Source of the DNA: an uncultured Verrucomicrobiota bacterium
Lineage (GTDB): Bacteria; Verrucomicrobiota; CALLYA01
Assembly: GCA_937875495.1 (NCBI GenBank)
Contig: CALLYA010000181.1
Span: 1 to 42,547 of the forward strand
DNA: 42,547 nucleotides
Reading direction: 5' to 3'
Below are positions 21,034 through 41,583 of this stretch, piece after piece (the first letter of the stretch is position 1; every line of letters begins with the position of its first letter). The notes under the pieces are model-generated. The model saw only the letters and a program-made list of their open reading frames with translations. It had not been told where the DNA came from and made no database searches. The translations under genes were made by a program, and so were the position numbers.

Positions 21034-21164
21034 AGCAACCTCCGACCTCGCGCAGGGACCGGAAGCCCCTCGCGCAGCGGCACGCCACAGTCATGCCTCA
21101 TCCCCAGGCCGACGGCGTGCAATTGAGAGAGAGATGTCCGATTCTTTGGTTGGAGGTGATTGGA

Positions 21165-22004
21165 ATGCTGGAGTTCAAGATCGATGCGGAGCGGTGTGTT
21201 CTTTGTGATGCGTGTGTTGAGGACTGTCCTGTGCGGATTATTGAGCGGACCGACGGCCTGCCGTTCATCAGGCCGGAGCGAGAGGCACATTGTCTGCGAT
21301 GCCAGCACTGTCTTGCGGTCTGCCCGGAGGCGGCGTTGTCGATCCTCGGGCGGGTCCCAGAGGCAAGCCTGGAGAGGGGACCCAATCATCTTCCGCGCAT
21401 GGAGCAGCTGGAGCGGCTGGTTCGGGGGCGCCGCAGCGTACGCCGATATCGAGATGAGAATGTGGACCCTGCGCTGATCGATTCGCTGATCGCGACCGCG
21501 GCACATGCGCCCTCGGGAGTGAATGCCCAGGGATTGGTATTTCATGTAATGGACGACCGGCAGCAGATGGAACAGTTTCGCCGGCGAGCACTTGCCGACC
21601 TGGCGGATGCGCTGGCTGCGGACCGCGTCCCGCTGCAGTTTGCCTATTTGCATGCAGCGGTGCCTGCGTACGAGAAGCATGGAGTGGACATCCTGATGCG
21701 GGGCGCGCCACACTTCCTGATCGTGGCCGCACCGGAGGCGAATCCGTGTCCCCATGAGGACATCATCATTGCACTGACCACCTTCGAGCTATTGGCGCAG
21801 AATGCGGGCCTGGGCACGGTCTGGTGCGGGATGTTGAAGATGCTTTTGGAGACACTGCCCGACCTGAAGGCCGAACTCGGTTTGACCGAAGGGTACGTCT
21901 ACTATCCAATGCTATTCGGACACCCGGCAGTCCATTATCCGCGCACGGTCCAGCGGGACGAAAGCGTAGTCATTCAGCGCTGCGCAATTACACAGCACGA
22001 CTGA
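21165..22004 (+). CDS. nitroreductase-family protein with an N-terminal 2x[4Fe-4S] ferredoxin domain
   Basis: The start at MLEFKID is preceded by GGAGGTGA. CVLCDACVEDCP and CLRCQHCLAVCP cluster motifs, then the nitroreductase core (RRSVRRY...). Confidence 0.8.
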   Translation: MLEFKIDAERCVLCDACVEDCPVRIIERTDGLPFIRPEREAHCLRCQHCLAVCPEAALSILGRVPEASLERGPNHLPRMEQLERLVRGRRSVRRYRDENVDPALIDSLIATAAHAPSGVNAQGLVFHVMDDRQQMEQFRRRALADLADALAADRVPLQFAYLHAAVPAYEKHGVDILMRGAPHFLIVAAPEANPCPHEDIIIALTTFELLAQNAGLGTVWCGMLKMLLETLPDLKAELGLTEGYVYYPMLFGHPAVHYPRTVQRDESVVIQRCAITQHD

Positions 22005-23328: not shown

Positions 23329-23468
23329 CCTTGTTGGTGCGGTGACCGGACTGACCTTGGTGACATTATTGACCTTGGTGACAACATCCTCAGCGCGGTC
23401 AATCTGGTCAATCCAGTCATGCGTGTCAATGCGGTCATCACAACTCCCCCGCAAACGCCTGGTGCAGC
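23329..23468. repeat. direct repeat copy 1 (hsdS 3' end plus 5xTGAC / 5xGTCA 9-bp phased dyad array)
   Basis: TGAC at 23343, 52, 61, 70 and 79. GTCA at 23398, 407, 416, 425 and 434. Near-identical to 23521..23642 except for an 18-bp (two-unit) indel. Confidence 0.9.
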
Positions 23469-23520: not shown

Positions 23521-23642
23521 CCTTGTTGGTGCGGTGACCGGATTGACCCTGGTGACAACATCCTCAGCGCGGTCAATCTGGTCAATCCAGTCATGCGTGT
23601 CAATGCGGTCATCACAACTCCCCCGCAAACGCCTGGTGCAGC
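23521..23642. repeat. direct repeat copy 2 (3xTGAC / 5xGTCA)
   Basis: Same sequence as copy 1 minus two 9-bp units. Confidence 0.9.
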
Positions 23643-26860: not shown

Positions 26861-26959
26861 TTCATGTTCCCCCTCTAGGCCTAACGAAAAGGTCAGGCAC
26901 AGCCACTGGCAGCCGCACTCGCGACTGAAACCACAGTGTTGTTCCGTCTGATACTCATG

Positions 26960-27463
26960 CTACTGACCTGCGCGGTGGCTGTTGCCTGCACCGTCTGGTT
27001 CTGCCTGGCTACGGGTTTGATGCTCAAAAAGCCGCTTCGTCTCGGTCATCTTCTCTGGCAATTGGCCGAAAGCCTGCTGCAACTCCGATACGATCTCGAT
27101 AATCTGGCGCTTCTGTTCGGTCGTCCCGTGGTGTCGTGCCGCTGCAACGGTTGCGTCGTACTCCTTCCGTAACTCAACGAGCCGTCGGATTTCTCCTCGG
27201 CACTTCGCGCAATGACGAGGCTGAGAATCAACCCAGAAGAAGTAATCCTCGAACCACGCCTTCTGCTCTTTGGCTGTCCACGTGAACTCCTGTCCACACC
27301 GCTCGCATTTGAAGTCCGCGTCTATGTACCAGTGGCGAGGACATACGCTGTAGTTTTGCTTTTCAACGTTCCCCCGAACCGCTGTTTCGTGATGAATCGC
27401 CAAGGCAGCAAAGAAAAAGTGCTGCGGCATCTTCTTGGGATGTGAATTTCCAAAAATGTCCAT
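26960..27463 (-). CDS. zinc-ribbon domain protein (cassette, second gene of a pair)
   Basis: FKCERCGQEFTWTAKEQKAWFE...PRHCAKCR is a C-x2-C...C-x2-C ribbon followed by a helical tail. Confidence 0.6.
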   Translation of the reverse strand: MDIFGNSHPKKMPQHFFFAALAIHHETAVRGNVEKQNYSVCPRHWYIDADFKCERCGQEFTWTAKEQKAWFEDYFFWVDSQPRHCAKCRGEIRRLVELRKEYDATVAAARHHGTTEQKRQIIEIVSELQQAFGQLPEKMTETKRLFEHQTRSQAEPDGAGNSHRAGQ

Positions 27464-27486
27464 GTCGTCACATCTGGACCGGAATC

Positions 27487-27520
27487 AGGTGGATCCGTCT
27501 ATCTTCCCATTATGCCCAGT
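27487..27520. repeat. 34-bp short form (empty-site form) of the 167-bp repeat
   Basis: AGGTGGATCCGTCTATCTTCCCATTATGCCCAGT. It encodes the last codons (..NWA-stop) of ORF 27510. Confidence 0.8.
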
Positions 27521-28283
27521 TCGTCTGCGTCTGCCTTTTGGCGAGCGTCCGGAACCGATCCTCTAATTCCCCACGCAGGCGTTGGTGGCCCTCGCCGTTG
27601 TTCAAGTAGTACGCGTAGCGATGATGACGCAGGTCGAACGGGATATCGTCTGGGTTCTGTGTGATCGGTACCACATGTTTGCCCAGTACATGCGCTATTC
27701 CTGCTTCATAGAAAACGTTGGCGTTCCTGCCCGAGAAATCGCACACAACCACATAGGAGCGGAAGATCAGAGAGAAAACATCCTGAATCACCGTGGAGTC
27801 TTCCCATATGTCATCGGCACGCACGCACCGGAATCCGGCTGCCTCTGCCGCCGACTTGATCGTCTGGTAAACCGGTCGCAAGACTGGATCGAAAGACATC
27901 ATCACGGAGAGAAGATTGATGTCTGGTTTCTCGGCAGGCACTGAGAAGACCATCGGCGAGAAGACAATGCGCCTGGCTCCCTCGTCGGTGCACGAGATGA
28001 ACTCCCCTCCAGCCGGACATGTGCGGCCGATGTAGTCCAAAATCAGTGGGAAGTTGTCCGGTCTCGCATCAATCATGTCCTTCAGCATCTGAAGAGCATG
28101 GCCATCGTAGTCGTCGTCATTCCACCGAAGGCTGCGAAGCAGGCGCGAATGCCGGTTGACTTCGTCGAGCATCTCCGTGATGGCGCCAAGCTCTCGCCAA
28201 TTGGACTCGCTGAATCCGCTGACGACCTGGTTTTTCAATGCGATGAGCTGTCGACCCGTTGGAAGTTCCGTCTTCTCCATCAT
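27510..28283 (-). CDS. two-domain protein: unknown N-terminal domain plus a C-terminal nucleoside 2-deoxyribosyltransferase-like/TIR-like Rossmannoid domain (cassette)
   Basis: VMMSF...VYQTIKSAAEAAGFRCVRADDIW...DVFSLIFRSYVVVCDFSGRNANVFYEAGIAHVLGKHVVPITQ..DIPFDL..HR matches the pattern I know from Nuc_deoxyrib_tr/TIR-like effector domains. Not searched. Confidence 0.5.
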   Translation of the reverse strand: MMEKTELPTGRQLIALKNQVVSGFSESNWRELGAITEMLDEVNRHSRLLRSLRWNDDDYDGHALQMLKDMIDARPDNFPLILDYIGRTCPAGGEFISCTDEGARRIVFSPMVFSVPAEKPDINLLSVMMSFDPVLRPVYQTIKSAAEAAGFRCVRADDIWEDSTVIQDVFSLIFRSYVVVCDFSGRNANVFYEAGIAHVLGKHVVPITQNPDDIPFDLRHHRYAYYLNNGEGHQRLRGELEDRFRTLAKRQTQTNWA

Positions 28284-28304: not shown

Positions 28305-28363
28305 CCCAAACTGCAGCGAAAACGCGCAGCGTTATGTCCGTCGGCTTGACGGCTTGGTTAGGC
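28305..28363 (-). repeat. attC-like site
   Basis: Minus strand GCCTAACCAAGCC...GTTTGGG, then GGAGATacaacATG of ORF 28283. A second short palindrome (28381..28424, GGTGAAC...GTTGAAG) lies directly upstream. Confidence 0.5.
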
Positions 28364-28854: not shown

Positions 28855-28890
28855 CGTTTTCCTGCGGGGTTCGGGGCCGATAGGCGTCCC

Positions 28891-28959
28891 GCCTAGCGTT
28901 CGCCATGACCGGCGCGCAAATGCCGAGCGCGACGTAACTTTTGCGCGTCCGAGTTGAGT
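28891..28959 (-). repeat. attC-like site
   Basis: Minus strand ACTCAAC-TCGGACGCGCAAA...TTTGCGCGCCGG...GCTAGGC, with an internal 8-11 bp stem. Confidence 0.5.
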
Positions 28960-28999
28960 GCATTGCTGGGCGACACCGGGTCAAAAATATCCTGATTGA

Positions 29000-29593
29000 T
29001 CACGGATGTATCTTCTCTTGCTCTGCCAGCATTTGCACGAATTGTGCAATTTTCTTTGCCCGGCTTTCAGCATTCTTTGCCGTTTGAATCCTGAACAGGA
29101 CAGCGTATCTATTTCGACTATCGAGTGTTTCGAAGAACTCCTTAGCCCGTGCGTTGCCACCTAACGCTGATTGAAAATCAGGTGGTACAGAAGACTTACC
29201 GGCCGAGTCATATGCAGCATCCCAGCGCCCGTCAAGCTTGGCACGTTCTATTTCTTTGAGTCCGGCAGGCTGCATTTTTCCTGATCCGATGAGAGCAAGC
29301 GCTTTTTCTTTGTTGATTTTTGACCACACACTCTTCGCCGAGCGTGGCGTGACTCTTTGCAGCCAGTACAGATCGCTGTGCGCCTTCTTTTGGCCGTCTA
29401 TCCAACCGAAGCAGAGCGCAACCTCAACAGCCTCGTCGTATGAAATTGATTGCACAGCAGAATTCTTTTTCGCTAGTTGCAACCATATACCGGAGGACGT
29501 GGCGTGGTTTTCGGTTAGCCATATTAGCCAGTCGCGTTGCCGTTCAAAGAGCTTGGTTGGTAGGATATTGGGTTTCTTTTGAGATTTGCTCAT
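29000..29593 (-). CDS. YdeI/OmpD-associated family protein (cassette)
   Basis: WLQLAKKNS...SYDEAVEVALCFGWIDGQKK...RNRYAVLFRIQTAK is the typical YdeI/OmdA pattern. Confidence 0.7.
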   Translation of the reverse strand: MSKSQKKPNILPTKLFERQRDWLIWLTENHATSSGIWLQLAKKNSAVQSISYDEAVEVALCFGWIDGQKKAHSDLYWLQRVTPRSAKSVWSKINKEKALALIGSGKMQPAGLKEIERAKLDGRWDAAYDSAGKSSVPPDFQSALGGNARAKEFFETLDSRNRYAVLFRIQTAKNAESRAKKIAQFVQMLAEQEKIHP

Positions 29594-29621
29594 TACAACT
29601 CATTTCGCCTCCATTGCTGAC

Positions 29622-29685
29622 GCCCTACTGAGTGTTGAGGCTTTCGGCGCGCCAGCGACGAATACTCTCCGATGCCTTGTACTGC
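29622..29685 (-). repeat. attC-like site, CTTTCGGCGCG subfamily
   Basis: 64 bp. CTTTCGGCGCG sits at almost the same offset (1 nt further in) as in 31179..31240 and 35564..35626. The cores are GCAGTAC/GTAGGGC, so AAC/GTT are both changed to TAC/GTA, which is compensatory. Confidence 0.5.
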
Positions 29686-29688
29686 TCC

Positions 29689-30126
29689 TCAGTCATCTTC
29701 CCAAATTTCCACGGGGGTGCCGTCCCTGAACACGACGGTGAGTTCACCATCCGGCCAGTTCTCGAAAAGGTACCCGATACTGAAGAAGTCTCCCTTCAGT
29801 AAATCCGTGACGTCGAGTGCATGCGGCGTGATCTTGCCGTATCCGGTGAGGGTGTTGGGCCGATCCGCCTTGACATAAGCAAGTGCCTTTTCGCTCCAGG
29901 AGGGCAGTTCGGAAATGACCGTTTGGGCTTTGGCAACGACTTCCGGTTCGAACGTCTTGTCGAGGATGAAAATGGTCATTTGCCCGAGTGGAGTCTCAAC
30001 TTGAGTTGACCACCAGGCATCATCGAACACAAACGTACCGAGTGCCGTTTCGACCTTCAGCTTCTCCTTGGGCTTTCGATCGAACCAGTTCATAATATCT
30101 TCCAGTGTAATGTTCGGCTTCGTCAT
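29689..30126 (-). CDS. hypothetical protein, 145 aa (cassette)
   Basis: Clean ORF with no motif recognised. It is preceded by a 37-aa micro-ORF (30139..30252). Confidence 0.55.
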   Translation of the reverse strand: MTKPNITLEDIMNWFDRKPKEKLKVETALGTFVFDDAWWSTQVETPLGQMTIFILDKTFEPEVVAKAQTVISELPSWSEKALAYVKADRPNTLTGYGKITPHALDVTDLLKGDFFSIGYLFENWPDGELTVVFRDGTPVEIWEDD

Positions 30127-30284
30127 TGCTCGACTTGCTCATCCTGAACTGTGATGCCTCCGTCTTCCGGTCGACAGGTCGAAGACTTGGGAGCCAATGG
30201 TGAGCGTCATGCCTTCGTCCTCCACGATCAGGTTGTGACCTGCAATGCTCATGTTGTTCGTCCACGGCCTTTCTGAAAGACGCC

Positions 30285-31169
30285 TCAATTCTCTGTTTCG
30301 ACATTCTCCTTTTTTCTTCTTACGCTGAGGATCAACAGGGCTACACCCAACAGCGGCAGTCCGATTGAGAGGGTGTTTGCCGTGATCTGGAATCTGGTTT
30401 CCAACAGAGCGGGCAGCGCCATGCCTGCCCATGGATCTTCGTCTTTCTTCCCGAAAGGAAGGATGCCGACGCCGCTGGCCGCTGGCCAGAGGCGCTCCCT
30501 TCTTGCGTACTCCATCAAACCGCGCTCAACCTCTGTGGAGACCGTGCGATTCGAGAGCGCGTACACCAAGGGGTCGAACCCGGAATCGCGGAGACAGCGG
30601 AAGGCGTTGTGCTTCATCTCGCTCGGAATTGCGGTCAACTCATTGGTATCGGAATTGCCGAGTACTGCGATCAGGACAGGGATCTGCTCTTCAGTGGGAG
30701 GAACATCGACTTCGAAACCGCGTTGGCGGAATCCCTCCGCAATCCACTCCGCTTGAGACTTGAATTTGTTCTTCTCCCACCAGGCCAACCAGGCGTTGGC
30801 GTCTTCGCCGACGTCTTGATTCGAAATCGAACGTAGAGCGCCGTCGGCGTGGGCAAGTCCGTCTCCCATGCATCCATCCAAACGCGTGCCCGGTTCGATG
30901 TGGTCAATGATCCATTTCATCCAAGACTCGTCGCCGCAGGCTCCGACTGTAAATCCGGCATCATGAAACCACCCCATGCGATGAATGCTCTCCTGAAACT
31001 GAGACCAGTACTCACGCTGGGAGTGAGATGAATACCACTCTGGGTCCAACGTGCGACGAAATGGTGCCAGCTTGTAGTACCACCAGTACCCGCAGAACAC
31101 GCCAGCACCGATGAAGACCAGTGCGAGCACGCGCGCAATGCCTCGCCAGTGTTGCTTGAACCACTTCAT
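30285..31169 (-). CDS. hypothetical membrane protein with N- and C-terminal TM helices (cassette)
   Basis: ATG chosen at MKWFKQHW, downstream of the attC core. The alternative GTG at 31190 lies inside the attC. Confidence 0.6.
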   Translation of the reverse strand: MKWFKQHWRGIARVLALVFIGAGVFCGYWWYYKLAPFRRTLDPEWYSSHSQREYWSQFQESIHRMGWFHDAGFTVGACGDESWMKWIIDHIEPGTRLDGCMGDGLAHADGALRSISNQDVGEDANAWLAWWEKNKFKSQAEWIAEGFRQRGFEVDVPPTEEQIPVLIAVLGNSDTNELTAIPSEMKHNAFRCLRDSGFDPLVYALSNRTVSTEVERGLMEYARRERLWPAASGVGILPFGKKDEDPWAGMALPALLETRFQITANTLSIGLPLLGVALLILSVRRKKENVETEN

Positions 31170-31178
31170 CTTCTTATG

Positions 31179-31240
31179 CGACAACTTCACGCCTCACTTT
31201 CGGCGCGACGGAACGTGACGGCAAGTTCCCCTTGTTAGGC
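31179..31240 (-). repeat. attC-like site, CTTTCGGCGCG subfamily
   Basis: Minus strand GCCTAAC...CGCGCCGAAAGTGAGG-cgtgaa-GTTGTCG. The TAA of ORF 31235 lies inside GCCTAAC. Confidence 0.55.
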
Positions 31241-31784: not shown

Positions 31785-32153
31785 TCAGCATTTCACGTGC
31801 GTTTTGATCGCCACTTTGGTGTTCTTCGCCCCCCCGCTCGATAGAAATGTTGCATCAGCTTGGTTGAACGACCGCACGACTTCATCCGAGCCAATGAGGT
31901 TGAACTCGAGTGCTGTTCTTTTGTAGTCAAACGAAACAATCTGTTTCTGAGCTTTCGCGAACTCTTTCGGGTCCTTGATTCCCGCTAGCGTGCGGACAAT
32001 CGGCTCGAGTGTATCTAGGTAGATTTTCCTTCGTTCGTCTACGAGGCGTTCCTTCGCTCGCTGGAGTCGATCTATGCGCGATTGGATGAACCAAACGCCA
32101 AGTCCGACCACTCCGGCCAGCACGGTTGCGATCAGCTGTTCGTTGAGGCCCAC
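31785..32153 (-). CDS. hypothetical TM plus coiled-coil protein, 122 aa (cassette)
   Basis: GTG start with GGAGAA upstream. Its stop overlaps the ATG of a 42-aa ORF (31663..31791, ATGCTGA), which may be its frame-shifted C-terminus. Confidence 0.55.
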   Translation of the reverse strand: MGLNEQLIATVLAGVVGLGVWFIQSRIDRLQRAKERLVDERRKIYLDTLEPIVRTLAGIKDPKEFAKAQKQIVSFDYKRTALEFNLIGSDEVVRSFNQADATFLSSGGAKNTKVAIKTHVKC

Positions 32154-33186: not shown

Positions 33187-33366
33187 TTATGAGATAGATT
33201 CAGCCGTATAGCTGAGGGTGATTTCGCCATCTTGAAACGGGAATGATTCGGTTTTCAGAACCTTGTGCCAATATCCGCCCCGAAGGTGTTGCACGAAAGC
33301 ACCACAAAGGCCCCCGACGACAAGGACCACAATGAAGGCGATAGCTGTGACCAGTTTCTTTCTCAT
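33187..33366 (-). CDS. small membrane protein, 59 aa (below the ORF-track cutoff, translated by hand)
   Basis: MRKKLVTAIAFIVVLVVGGLCGAFVQHL...SIS-stop, with AAAGAG before the ATG. Confidence 0.4.
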   Translation of the reverse strand: MRKKLVTAIAFIVVLVVGGLCGAFVQHLRGGYWHKVLKTESFPFQDGEITLSYTAESIS

Positions 33367-33387
33367 CTCTTTAGCCGAACACTAATT

Positions 33388-33551
33388 AGGTGGATCCGTT
33401 TATTATCCAGAGTTGTCCCTTCCGGTCCGTATACAGCCCCTTGGTTGTCTTCAGAATAACAGGACAAGCAATTCATTGTCAACACATTGCGAACTCCTTT
33501 GATTTTTATTCGGCATGCTATGCAGATCTGCCTACCTTCCCATGATGCAGG
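33388..33551. repeat. 167-bp-class repeat, copy 2 (filled form)
   Basis: About 85% identical to 38781..38947. Flanked by internal direct repeats GGATCCGTTTAT / AGATCTGCCTAC. Confidence 0.85.
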
Positions 33552-38756: not shown

Positions 38757-38780
38757 AATTTCTCTATTCGAACAGAAATA

Positions 38781-38947
38781 AGGTGGATCCGTCTATCAGC
38801 CGGAGTTGTCCCTCCCGGTCCGTATACAACCCCTTGGCTATCTTGGCATAAAACAGGACAAGCAATTCATTGTCAACACATTGCGAGCTCCTTTGGTTTT
38901 TATTCAGCATGTTATGGAGATCCGTCTATCTTCCCTTATTGCCCAGT
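38781..38947. repeat. 167-bp repeat, copy 1 (filled form)
   Basis: AGGTGGATCCGTCTATC-[135 bp]-GGAGATCCGTCTATCTTCCCTTATTGCCCAGT. The ends reconstitute the 34-bp short form at 27487. Confidence 0.85.
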
Positions 38948-39185
38948 GCGTCCAGTCAGTGAAACCGAAAACTTGCGCTACTCGTTGGCCGCACGCCAGG
39001 CCGAAGCGTTTGAACGGTGCGGATGCCGAGACGGCATCGTCTCCGACGACGAGTACTTCTTCGGGAACAGGCCCGTGATGCTTCAGGATCTGTTCAAAGA
39101 CCTCCTGCTTGCCGGTTCGCTCGGGGTCGTCAATGGCGTCGATGAATATCGCTGTGAAGTGAGGGGGGAGCTGGAGGGCTGCAAT
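38946..39185 (-). pseudogene. HAD-superfamily hydrolase C-terminal fragment
   Basis: HFTAIFIDAIDD...GKQEVFEQILKHHGPVPEEVLVVGDD shows HAD motifs III/IV. The N-terminal half is replaced by mosaic repeat copy C. Confidence 0.5.
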
Positions 39186-39196
39186 CTTGCTCGTGC

Positions 39197-39546
39197 CCGT
39201 CCGAAAACCGTGTTGGCCCACAACGAAAGGTCTCCGGGGCTGAATGGGGAGGACAGGAAGGGGGGAGGGAAGGTGAAAGGAAAACTTGGAAGACGCGAAG
39301 ACACGAAGGTCCGGAAGGAGAGGTTTCCTTGGGGGTTGCTGTGATCCCTGCAAATGCCTGATCCGCTGAAAACGGTACACCTGACCAATTCCCCAAAGAG
39401 GTAGGGATCAGAGCATCAACCCTACCCACCCCCATGCCCAGGTCGAAAACGCCACCGCGCCCTCTGCGCCCATTGCGGGAGGCTCTTCGCATCCTGATGG
39501 GAAAGCCAGGCTGGGATGCGGCTGCCTTTTCGGACGACCTCCAGCT
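39197..39546 (+). repeat. mosaic dispersed repeat, copy C (most complete, inverted termini)
   Basis: It starts CGTCCGAAAACC and ends CCTTTTCGGACGACCTCCAG, which are inverted. The internal modules are shared with copies A, B, D and E. Confidence 0.8.
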
Positions 39547-39762: not shown

Positions 39763-41583
39763 CTAAAGGGGCCAGAACCAAAGGATCGTTGGGACACCCA
39801 CGACCACCACCAACACGGAGAGGGGCAGACCCATTCGCCAGTAGTCGCCGAACCTGTACCCGCCCGGCGCCATGACCATCGCGTTGGACTGGTGGCCGAT
39901 GGGCGTCAGAAACGCACAGGAAGCGCCGACCGCCACACACATCAAAAAAGGGTCTGCATTGGCGCCGATGGCGTGGGACAGGCTGGCGGCAATCGGCGCC
40001 ATCAAAATAGCCGCCGCTGCATTGTTGACAATATTGCTCAACAGCATCGTTCCGACCATCAGAATCGCAAGCGTCGCCGCCGGCGGGGTGGCCTGCGCGA
40101 CTCCGTGCAACTGATCAGCGATCAGGTTGGCGGCCCCGGTGGTTTCAAAGGCGTTGCCGATGGGAATCATCGCCCCCAATAGCACCACCACTGGCCAGTC
40201 AATACTTTTGTACGCGTCGGTCGGTGACAGCAGCCCGGCAACAATCAGTACCAACGCCGCACAGGTCAGGGCGATCTGGGCGGGCAACACATTCACCGCC
40301 ACCAGCGTCATCGCAACCGCGAAAATGCCGACCGGCAACAGCACCTTGCGCGGCTTTCCGATGCGCAGTCCGCGCTCGGCCAGGGGCAAACAGCCCAGCT
40401 CCGACAACGTGGACGGCATCGACTTGGCCCCGCCCTGAAGCAACAATATGTCCGCGGCCATAAACCGAATGCACCCCAGTCGTTCCTGAATCCGCTTGCC
40501 GCGACGGGCGACGGCAATGACGTTAACCCCGTACCGCTCACGCAGCAAAAGACGGGATGCGGTCTTTCCGATCAGCAGCGATTCAGACGCGACAATGGCC
40601 TCAAGCACACTGACTTCGTCGGATTCAATCGACTTGTTGGGTTTACCTTTTTCATCCTCTTTTTCTTTTCCACCTTCTTCGCCCTCGTCGCCCTTGATGA
40701 ACTCCAGCCCGCCGTCGTCAATCAGGCTCTTGAGGCTGTCCGAATCAGTCTCGACCATCAGGATGTCCCCAGCTCTGAGGACGCGATACATCGACGGGGC
40801 CAAAAAACGCTTGTCGTTGCGGACCAGCCCGACAATCGTAATATCCTCTTTGTTCGGCATCGCCAAGAGCAGATCGTGCAGCGGAAACCCGGCAAACTTG
40901 GATTCTTCCGGAACGCGCAACTCGCTGATATATTCGCTGATCTCAAACAGTTCCCCGGATGCGACATTATTCGTTTGTTTGGGAATCAGACGCCAGCCGA
41001 CCAGCGAGATAAAGACCACCCCGACAAGGGCGACACATACGCCAACCGGCATAAAATCGAACATTCCGAACGGCGTCTCGGCCACATTGGCTCGATACGC
41101 GGAGATAATCATATTGGGCGGCGTCCCGATCAATGTCAACATCCCGCCCAGGAGCGACCCGAATGCCATTGGCATCAACAGCAGCGACGGTGAGCGACCG
41201 CTCTTGCGCGACATCCAGGTCGCCACCGGCATCAGCAGCGCCAGCGCACCAACATTGTTCATAAACCCCGAACACACCGTCACCAGCCCCGTCAGGGCCG
41301 CCACCTGCACCATCGGCCGGTCCCCTACCCGTCCCAGTTGACGCGCGATCAGATCTATCACGCCGGCATTGAACAATGCCTTGCTTACCACCAGCACCGC
41401 CACCACGGTAATAACCGCCGGGTGGCTGAACCCCGAAAACACCTCATCGGCCGGAACGATTCCAGTAATGGTGGCCACCAGCAGCGCCGCCAGCGACACC
41501 ACATCATACCGCCAGCGATTCCAGATAAACAAGGCCATCGTTACGGTGAGGATTCCGAATATGATCCATTGCTGTGTTGTCAT
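39763..41583 (-). CDS. SLC13/DASS-family anion permease with central TrkA-C (RCK_C) domains
   Basis: Two about 6-TM halves (DVVSLAALLVATITGIV...; SPTDAYKSIDWPVVVLLGAMIP...) flank cytoplasmic RCK_C-like segments (LRAGDILMVE; ADILLLQG). Confidence 0.8.
   Translation of the reverse strand: MTTQQWIIFGILTVTMALFIWNRWRYDVVSLAALLVATITGIVPADEVFSGFSHPAVITVVAVLVVSKALFNAGVIDLIARQLGRVGDRPMVQVAALTGLVTVCSGFMNNVGALALLMPVATWMSRKSGRSPSLLLMPMAFGSLLGGMLTLIGTPPNMIISAYRANVAETPFGMFDFMPVGVCVALVGVVFISLVGWRLIPKQTNNVASGELFEISEYISELRVPEESKFAGFPLHDLLLAMPNKEDITIVGLVRNDKRFLAPSMYRVLRAGDILMVETDSDSLKSLIDDGGLEFIKGDEGEEGGKEKEDEKGKPNKSIESDEVSVLEAIVASESLLIGKTASRLLLRERYGVNVIAVARRGKRIQERLGCIRFMAADILLLQGGAKSMPSTLSELGCLPLAERGLRIGKPRKVLLPVGIFAVAMTLVAVNVLPAQIALTCAALVLIVAGLLSPTDAYKSIDWPVVVLLGAMIPIGNAFETTGAANLIADQLHGVAQATPPAATLAILMVGTMLLSNIVNNAAAAILMAPIAASLSHAIGANADPFLMCVAVGASCAFLTPIGHQSNAMVMAPGGYRFGDYWRMGLPLSVLVVVVGVPTILWFWPL

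Follow-up and report, generated by a model that had tools for sequence, protein, structure and literature searches.

Fusions of an AbiJ-type N-terminal domain (AbiJ-NTD5) to an effector labelled 'TIR' were listed in 2013 by Anantharaman, Makarova, Burroughs, Koonin and Aravind (Biol Direct 8:15, PMC3710099, Table 2), with an optional DnaG-like zinc ribbon at the N-terminus of some members. AbiJ_NTD5 is otherwise found joined to HEPN or TIR toxins (PMC3710099). In type II-A retrons (Retron-Eco1/Ec86 and Sen2), anti-phage defence requires an effector resembling nucleoside 2-deoxyribosyltransferases (NDTs), which has a catalytic glutamate and is inactive until triggered; in Ec86 this residue, E106, is needed for defence (bioRxiv 10.1101/2023.08.16.553469). 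Genes for phage defence have also been reported in integron cassettes (bioRxiv 10.1101/2024.07.02.601719). Here, we compare these systems with two adjacent genes, geneA and geneB, on contig CALLYA010000181.1 of assembly GCA_937875495.1, the whole 42,547 nucleotides of which are referred to as the window. Drawing on sequence, structural models and analogy, we give a probability of roughly 0.6 to the reading that geneA encodes a predicted stand-alone sensor-effector N-glycosidase of the abortive infection (Abi) type, with geneB unrelated to it.

The closest precedent is that of 2013: geneA has the same two-domain architecture as the AbiJ-NTD5 plus 'TIR' fusions, for which the same sensor-plus-toxin logic was proposed. 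A first-pass annotation made from the letters alone had offered the gene pair as a candidate undescribed module; the architecture of geneA was already in print. That paper calls the effector a 'TIR nuclease', as a prediction only, whereas the profile and fold evidence for geneA lies nearer to NDT and DNPH1; its example, gi:296123260, may be a member of the geneA family. The retron effectors offer the nearest characterised enzymes, yet they are controlled by a reverse transcriptase (RT) and multicopy single-stranded DNA, while control of geneA would come from the fused AbiJ_NTD5; no RT domain occurs among the genes of the surrounding array and no Rfam family matched anywhere in the window. Like the TIR effectors of cyclic oligonucleotide-based anti-phage signalling systems (CBASS) and Pycsar (Cap12, PycTIR), geneA is matched by a PADLOC model of a CBASS 'Effector TIR' (PDLC00733), and Cap12 is matched weakly. 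No cGAS/DncV-like nucleotidyltransferase, cyclase or SAVED/STING sensor lies near geneA, the neighbours of which are GNAT, OmdA and small unknown genes. As no RT, cyclase or non-coding RNA is found nearby, geneA is, judged by its gene context, not a retron, CBASS or Pycsar component. With AbiJ it has the N-terminal AbiJ_NTD5 in common, and presumably the trigger-sensing logic too; Pfam found no Abi_C/HEPN domain in geneA and, because that domain is lacking, its domain content indicates that geneA is not AbiJ. Finally, DNPH1/Rcl and the NDTs (PF05014) have, as geneA does, a flavodoxin-like fold and a conserved motif, hydrophobic strand-D...(Y/F)ExGxAxxxGKP, the Glu of which is their nucleophile. 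In geneA, however, the domain falls below the Pfam threshold, shows His in GIAH besides an additional, invariant PFDL(R/Q)HHR motif, and is fused to a sensor domain in a gene distributed as mobile cargo rather than as part of core metabolism.

Both genes lie on the minus strand, geneA at 27510..28283 (257 aa) and geneB at 26960..27463 (167 aa), separated by a 46-bp spacer (27464..27509), exactly as first annotated; the peptide motifs quoted at that stage (HSRLLRSLRWNDDDYDGHAL and MMSF...VVCDFSGRNANVFYEAGIAHVLGKHVVPITQ..DIPFDL..HR in geneA, CERCG...CAKCR in geneB) are likewise all present. Both are clearly genuine genes: each belongs to a family of homologues (2,891 for geneA and 171 for geneB), and the geneA family has a uniform length of ~256 aa and 69 invariant columns in an alignment of 32 sequences. 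The helical N-terminal domain of geneA had been described as unrecognised; it is in fact Pfam AbiJ_NTD5 (PF18865), matched over residues 10-89 (28017..28256, minus strand) at E 3e-25 and 88.4 bits against a cut-off of 26.7, and matched in all 32 of the aligned orthologues. The AlphaFold2 model places helices across residues 10-88, and for this all-helical domain a sensory or regulatory role is predicted. Some relatives in the Rhodobacterales (loci L080-L088; proteins P0324 and P0352) have a further N-terminal extension of 110-240 aa with a zinc finger of the DnaG-primase type (CPFH...CFGCHAKGD), which agrees with a remark in Anantharaman et al. 2013.

The C-terminal effector domain of geneA (residues ~119-251; 27531..27929, minus strand) had been assigned to the NDT/TIR-like flavodoxin-fold group by eye, and four lines of evidence now support that call. 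Firstly, a Foldseek search of the AlphaFold2 model (mean predicted local distance difference test, pLDDT, 83) against the PDB was headed by NDTs, DNPH1 and TIR domains (2a0k, 8pqt, 8rpt, 8os9), with probabilities of ~1.0 and template-modelling scores of 0.5-0.67. Secondly, the PADLOC model PDLC00733 matches residues 124-251 at E 2.4e-9, the match covering just the C-terminal third of the model (positions 256-378 of 388). Thirdly, a domain-only, broader profile of the effector (A4) searched against the PDB matched DNPH1/Rcl (E 0.0035), Trypanosoma brucei NDT (E 0.012) and, weakly, Cap12. Fourthly, Pfam Nuc_deoxyrib_tr (PF05014) matches 23 of 29 relatives of the domain. The relatives P0298 (35.6 bits against a cut-off of 28.8) and P0349 match PF05014 within the region that aligns to geneA, and relatives above the Pfam cut-off are reached from geneA at phmmer E-values of 1e-33 to 1e-37. 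Less sensitive routes gave little: searching PDB chains with either protein sequence yielded nothing meaningful, a full-length profile of geneA (A1) against the PDB gave spurious matches only (an antibody chain, for example), and NCBIfam contained no match for geneA and only noise for geneB.

In the A4 alignment the geneA motif NVFYE(A/V)GIAHxLGK is paired with GVGYELGRAVALGKP, so that Glu193 (codon 27705..27707, minus strand) falls on the Glu of GVGYELG in Rcl/DNPH1 and of AFEVG in the T. brucei NDT. This residue, within the motif NVFYEAGIAH, is invariant in the 32 aligned orthologues and is the predicted catalytic nucleophile, and NVFYExGxAxxxGK corresponds to the NDT/DNPH1 catalytic motif. 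In Lactobacillus leichmannii NDT the nucleophile is Glu98 (PMC3710099); equivalence of Glu193 to that residue, and to E106 of Ec86, is inferred by way of the DNPH1 and T. brucei NDT alignment.

The alternative that survives best is that geneA is a canonical TIR-type NADase, which would leave the Abi-like biology of NAD+ depletion in place and change the enzyme family. It can draw on the PADLOC match, on Foldseek matches to the TIR domains of RUN1, SARM1, TIR-STING and AbTir (E 1e-3 to 1e-2), on the weak Cap12 profile match and on the 'TIR nuclease' label of 2013 (PMC3710099). NDT and DNPH1 nevertheless outrank TIR both in Foldseek and in the profile search; the Pfam families TIR, TIR_2 and CAP12-PCTIR_TIR match only 1-2 of the 29 domain relatives, and weakly (E 0.003-0.03), against 23 for Nuc_deoxyrib_tr; and the glutamate motif fits NDT and DNPH1. 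We therefore regard a TIR-type NADase as unlikely, though still the strongest competitor of the NDT-type N-glycosidase.

Searched alone, the NDT-like effector domain retrieves 15,676 cluster representatives; the clade is very large and only marginally captured by Pfam. The fusion partners of the domain in other proteins are CHAT, STAND NTPase, GAF, PP2C, TPR and PMT domains. Plasmids (82) and temperate phages (29) also encode it, in every case under a hypothetical annotation. Among these, temperate phages of Staphylococcus, Streptococcus and Enterococcus (H16-H25) encode the NDT-like domain alone, at 27-43% identity. A separate group of long multidomain proteins with PP2C, PMT, GAF or STAND NTPase domains (P0248, P0298, P0318, P0349, P0377, P0378 and P0389) contains two NDT-like copies in tandem, one of which retains the YExG glutamate while the other has L, Q or K in its place, an arrangement that suggests a pair of active enzyme and pseudo-enzyme.

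The geneA family itself is sporadic and mobile in its distribution: relatives are encoded in 325 of 185,579 species-representative genomes, scattered over many phyla. Among the neighbours of geneA homologues are GajA, prokaryotic Argonaute, MADS, restriction-modification and TIR genes, and some homologues are set in evident defence islands. One of them (P0006; L098 1-2842) adjoins AAA_23/MC2/CTD6 genes. On plasmids (L095/L096), an Agrobacterium homologue sits beside TIR, DUF262, caspase-family and metallophosphoesterase genes, and one from Sphingorhabdus beside a type II restriction-modification system with Vsr. No neighbour is conserved, whether at 70 aa or more across 79 genomic loci or family-wide at 25 aa or more within 500-nt flanks, and the sole recurrent one, present at 12 of the 79 loci and on both plasmids, is a paralogue that joins the same effector domain to another N-terminal domain. 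In about a dozen alphaproteobacterial loci (L044, L051, L055, L057-L060, L062 and L069) and on the plasmids (L095, 5005-5922; L096, 5094-5933) this paralogue lies in tandem or tail-to-tail with the geneA homologue, has a C-terminal domain of ~55-60% identity and an N-terminal domain of ~150 aa. The two look like paired alternative N-terminal domains on one type of effector.

A metabolic role, in which geneA would be a housekeeping enzyme of nucleotide salvage or sanitation like DNPH1 or NDT rather than a conflict effector, must be weighed against this distribution. DNPH1/Rcl and NDT are, after all, the best sequence-profile matches, conservation across phyla is very high (57-88%), and many of the neighbours of geneA homologues are housekeeping genes. 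Such an enzyme would, however, hardly be expected to be so sporadic, to reside in cassette arrays and on plasmids, or to be fused to a domain otherwise joined to HEPN and TIR toxins. The same effector domain is moreover fused elsewhere to CHAT, STAND and TPR domains, stands at some loci beside a paralogue with another N-terminal domain, and lies in some contexts within defence islands. We consider a housekeeping role improbable, and more so than a TIR-type activity.

The second gene encodes a zinc-binding protein of a different kind. Residues 48-91 of geneB (27191..27322, minus strand) match Pfam zf_Tbcl (PF13451; E 9.8e-11, 41.9 bits against a cut-off of 24), a treble clef with Cys53/56 and Cys85/88, of which C53, C56 and C88 are invariant and C85 is conserved in at least 90% of sequences. 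The AlphaFold2 model (pLDDT 86) has three helices after the treble clef; Foldseek found nothing significant for the model in the PDB (best E 0.45), and PADLOC gave no match. The contexts of seven geneB homologues (P0125, P0146, P0152, P0155, P0122, P0126 and P0138; 83-63% identical) include rplM/rpsI, an ECF sigma factor, a fatty-acid hydroxylase and a BrnT/CopG pair, among others. In one (L094 973-1505) the BrnT/CopG toxin-antitoxin pair comes after the geneB homologue, and in another (L091 2128-2985) a gene for Nmad3, a nucleotide-modification-associated protein, is found with the geneB homologue two genes downstream; these neighbours form no pattern. On the genomes sampled, then, geneB appears to be a zinc-binding protein of mixed housekeeping-like and cassette contexts, which argue against a dedicated defence role, and not a conserved partner of geneA.

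The first-pass annotation had taken the two genes as a candidate undescribed two-gene module, which would have been a new system had it been true. In 84 diverged contexts of geneA, drawn from 79 genomes, 2 plasmids and 3 metagenomic contigs, no member of the geneB family was present; the genomic loci were searched with tblastn and a hidden Markov model (HMM) of the geneB family over +/-6 kb, and for one metagenomic context, that of the 88%-identical homologue, the verdict comes from its gene table. The family was detected only in loci of the same organism (L001-L009) and in none of L010-L088, L095-L098 or the P0002 contig. Homologues of geneA at 88, 87, 84 and 79% identity already lack geneB. 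Conversely, none of 8 contexts of the seven geneB homologues contains a geneA-like gene (AbiJ_NTD5 or NDT-like), and in the contexts examined homologues of the two were never adjacent outside this organism, an outcome that the first-pass annotation had itself named as refuting its proposal. We conclude that geneA and geneB are probably unrelated neighbours rather than a two-component system. Two-gene nucleotide targeting or defence, with the Zn-ribbon protein as sensor, regulator or antitoxin, would fit the adjacency of the genes on one strand, the 46-bp gap that holds no attC, promoter or terminator, their linkage in all 8 contigs of this organism and the N-terminal zinc finger of some distant geneA relatives (PMC3710099), but it is very improbable and largely refuted by comparative genomics: the linkage is gone already at 87-88% geneA and 83% geneB identity, the families differ ~17-fold in size, geneB homologues lie beside rplM/rpsI, an ECF sigma factor and a fatty-acid hydroxylase, and the zinc finger of the relatives is missed by the geneB HMM (E > 7). 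The last point also disposes of a Rosetta-stone link through the Rhodobacterales proteins, the finger of which (CPFH..CFGC) is DnaG-type and unrelated to zf_Tbcl.

In the region as a whole, small genes of unrelated function follow one another in the same orientation (GNAT, OmdA-like, methyltransferase, glyoxalase-like, redoxin, 3-keto-disaccharide hydrolase and numerous unknowns), and genes for a CitMHS transporter (39763-41583) and a Fer4-nitroreductase (21093-22004) border the array. The lineage carrying the array is Candidatus Omnitrophota, and the same array is found in eight public contigs. L009 is 99-100% identical to the window and lacks window positions 28868-31228, a stretch of three cassettes, with the junction right behind a GCCTAAC box; L001, L003, L004 and L008 have different cassettes upstream of window position 31949. 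These differences in content between near-identical strains are evidence that the array is recombinationally active, and its junctions bear canonical boxes of the GCCTAAC / GTTAGGC type. The variable content and the junction boxes therefore indicate that the region behaves as an integron-type cassette array. In this it resembles the phage-defence integron cassettes, a small defence-type gene being part of an array that varies between strains, has its genes in one orientation and shows attC-like junctions; the differences are that no integrase was found among the open reading frames of the window scanned against Pfam, that the geneA-geneB junction has no attC and that the pair behaves as a fused double cassette. 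As no integrase family appears in the gene tables of L001-L008 either, the array may be a cluster of attC sites lacking an integron integrase (CALIN), or its integrase may lie outside the window. In an unusually long gap of ~690 nt between cassette genes, the window also has two 110-nt direct repeats (23359-23468 and 23533-23642), 96% identical and 174 nt apart.

The GTT and AAC triplets are the invariant cores of attC R boxes. The 46-bp spacer contains neither, folds into trivial hairpins only and has no promoter- or terminator-like site, so that the first reading was right to find no attC between the genes. Tentative attC-like sites are found instead on either side of the pair, both on the minus strand. 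That at the 3' end of the geneB cassette (26879..26946, R' box GTTAGGC at 26885..26879) is placed by homology with L093, a locus with a geneB homologue of 83% identity: the two sequences remain homologous past geneB through ...CCTTTTCGTT to the GTT of the site and then diverge, upstream of the geneB ATG the homology extends only ~20 nt, and the L093 copy of the site folds with nested stems. The other (28305..28363, GCCTAAC ... GTTTGGG), read from the sequence, lies upstream of geneA, 25 nt ahead of its start codon. The geneA of L010 is preceded by an attC-like site too, clearer than that at the equivalent position in the window, and a GCATAAC box overlaps the stop codon of this geneA where the window has GCATAAT. 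Because of these homology breakpoints, geneA and geneB each appear to be an independent cassette elsewhere, so that the likeliest account of the pair in the window is a fusion of two cassettes in which the attC once between them was lost or replaced. geneB is probably transcribed together with geneA here for no other reason than that the genes of a cassette array share a transcript.

What now occupies the junction is a repeat, and the earlier description of the spacer as the short form of a 167-bp repeat holds in part. The short form is present (27478-27525), matching both ends of copies of ~185 nt, rather than 167, at 33365-33548 and 38758-38942 (minus strand; the second spanning 38758..38942 and the first 33365..33548); it is, however, not wholly intergenic, as a 34-nt match (27492-27525) overlaps the final 16 nt of geneA. 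The copies are 83-88% identical. What the long form has beyond the short one is a stretch of ~133 nt flanked by two GATAGACGGATC direct repeats. With a promoter-like motif, TTGACA-17 nt-TTTTAT, in its sequence, the long form ends just ahead of the ATG of the next gene, and sister strains have copies elsewhere in the array (L001 1521-1637). The repeat could be a MITE-like insertion (miniature inverted-repeat transposable element), a mobile promoter module or what replaced an attC. Two further candidates were rejected: the spacer repeat as a short attC, having no GTT/AAC cores and no R/L-box hairpin, and the open reading frame at 38904..39380, upstream of a long repeat copy and with a 3' end resembling the last codons of geneA, as a geneA paralogue, there being no HMM match.

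Several observations weigh against our reading of geneA as a stand-alone NDT-like effector that shares its array with geneB by chance of assembly. The Foldseek E-values are modest (3e-4 to 1e-2) and the PDB profile match to DNPH1/Rcl is marginal (E 0.0035). geneA itself has no PF05014 match at E<=1, a single one of the 32 orthologues has one (E 0.11), and there is no Pfam TIR-family match for geneA (PF01582 / PF13676 / PF10137); the NDT/TIR-like assignment is thus one of convergent weak evidence plus transitive homology. With so many housekeeping genes among the neighbours of geneA homologues, an enrichment of these homologues in defence islands is at most suggestive. In this organism geneA and geneB travel together in 8 of 8 contigs of the same array, and a functional coupling specific to the lineage, with no promoter or terminator between the genes, is still strictly conceivable. 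As for the array, no integron integrase was found among the 20 larger other open reading frames of the window scanned against Pfam, and the attC sites were called by eye and from homology breakpoints; the minimum free energy z-scores of the candidate sites are not significant, and folding energy alone lends them no support.

NDTs act as dimers. By analogy, the NDT-like domain of geneA would probably do so too, with AbiJ_NTD5 holding the enzyme inactive and responding to a phage-derived trigger, upon which the Glu193 nucleophile would split base from sugar in an abundant nucleotide, be it NAD+, an adenine nucleotide or a deoxynucleoside monophosphate (dNMP), and bring about arrest of the infected cell. 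Of this scheme, the analysis shows the architecture, the fold and the glutamate motif, the solitary and mobile occurrence of the gene, the varied fusions of the effector domain and a partial defence-island context; the activity, substrate, trigger and defence phenotype are inferred, on the model of what Anantharaman et al. 2013 proposed and of the NDT-like effectors of retrons. A bolder version, which we hold as a possibility with the odds against it, is that the geneA family is a very large class of single-gene anti-phage proteins, in which an NDT-like clade outside Pfam (MMPF...NVFYExGxAH...PFDLxHxR) would be an N-glycosidase with a nucleotide substrate distinct from NAD+, such as dNMPs or adenine nucleotides, under control in cis by AbiJ_NTD5. 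If true, nucleotide depletion of this kind would be separate from the TIR and SIR2 NADases, and the clade, with its 15,676 cluster representatives, would be coupled to many alternative sensors.

It is worth noting, as a caution for the reading of cassette arrays, that a missing attC between two genes need not mean that they form a functional unit. geneA belongs to a kind of protein predicted computationally in 2013, and is described here from sequence and models. With it, cassette arrays in Omnitrophota and other phyla of the Planctomycetota-Verrucomicrobiota group can be seen to carry predicted effectors of the Abi type, and, as NDT-like effectors have so far been characterised mainly in retrons, the geneA family is a reasonable candidate for experiment.

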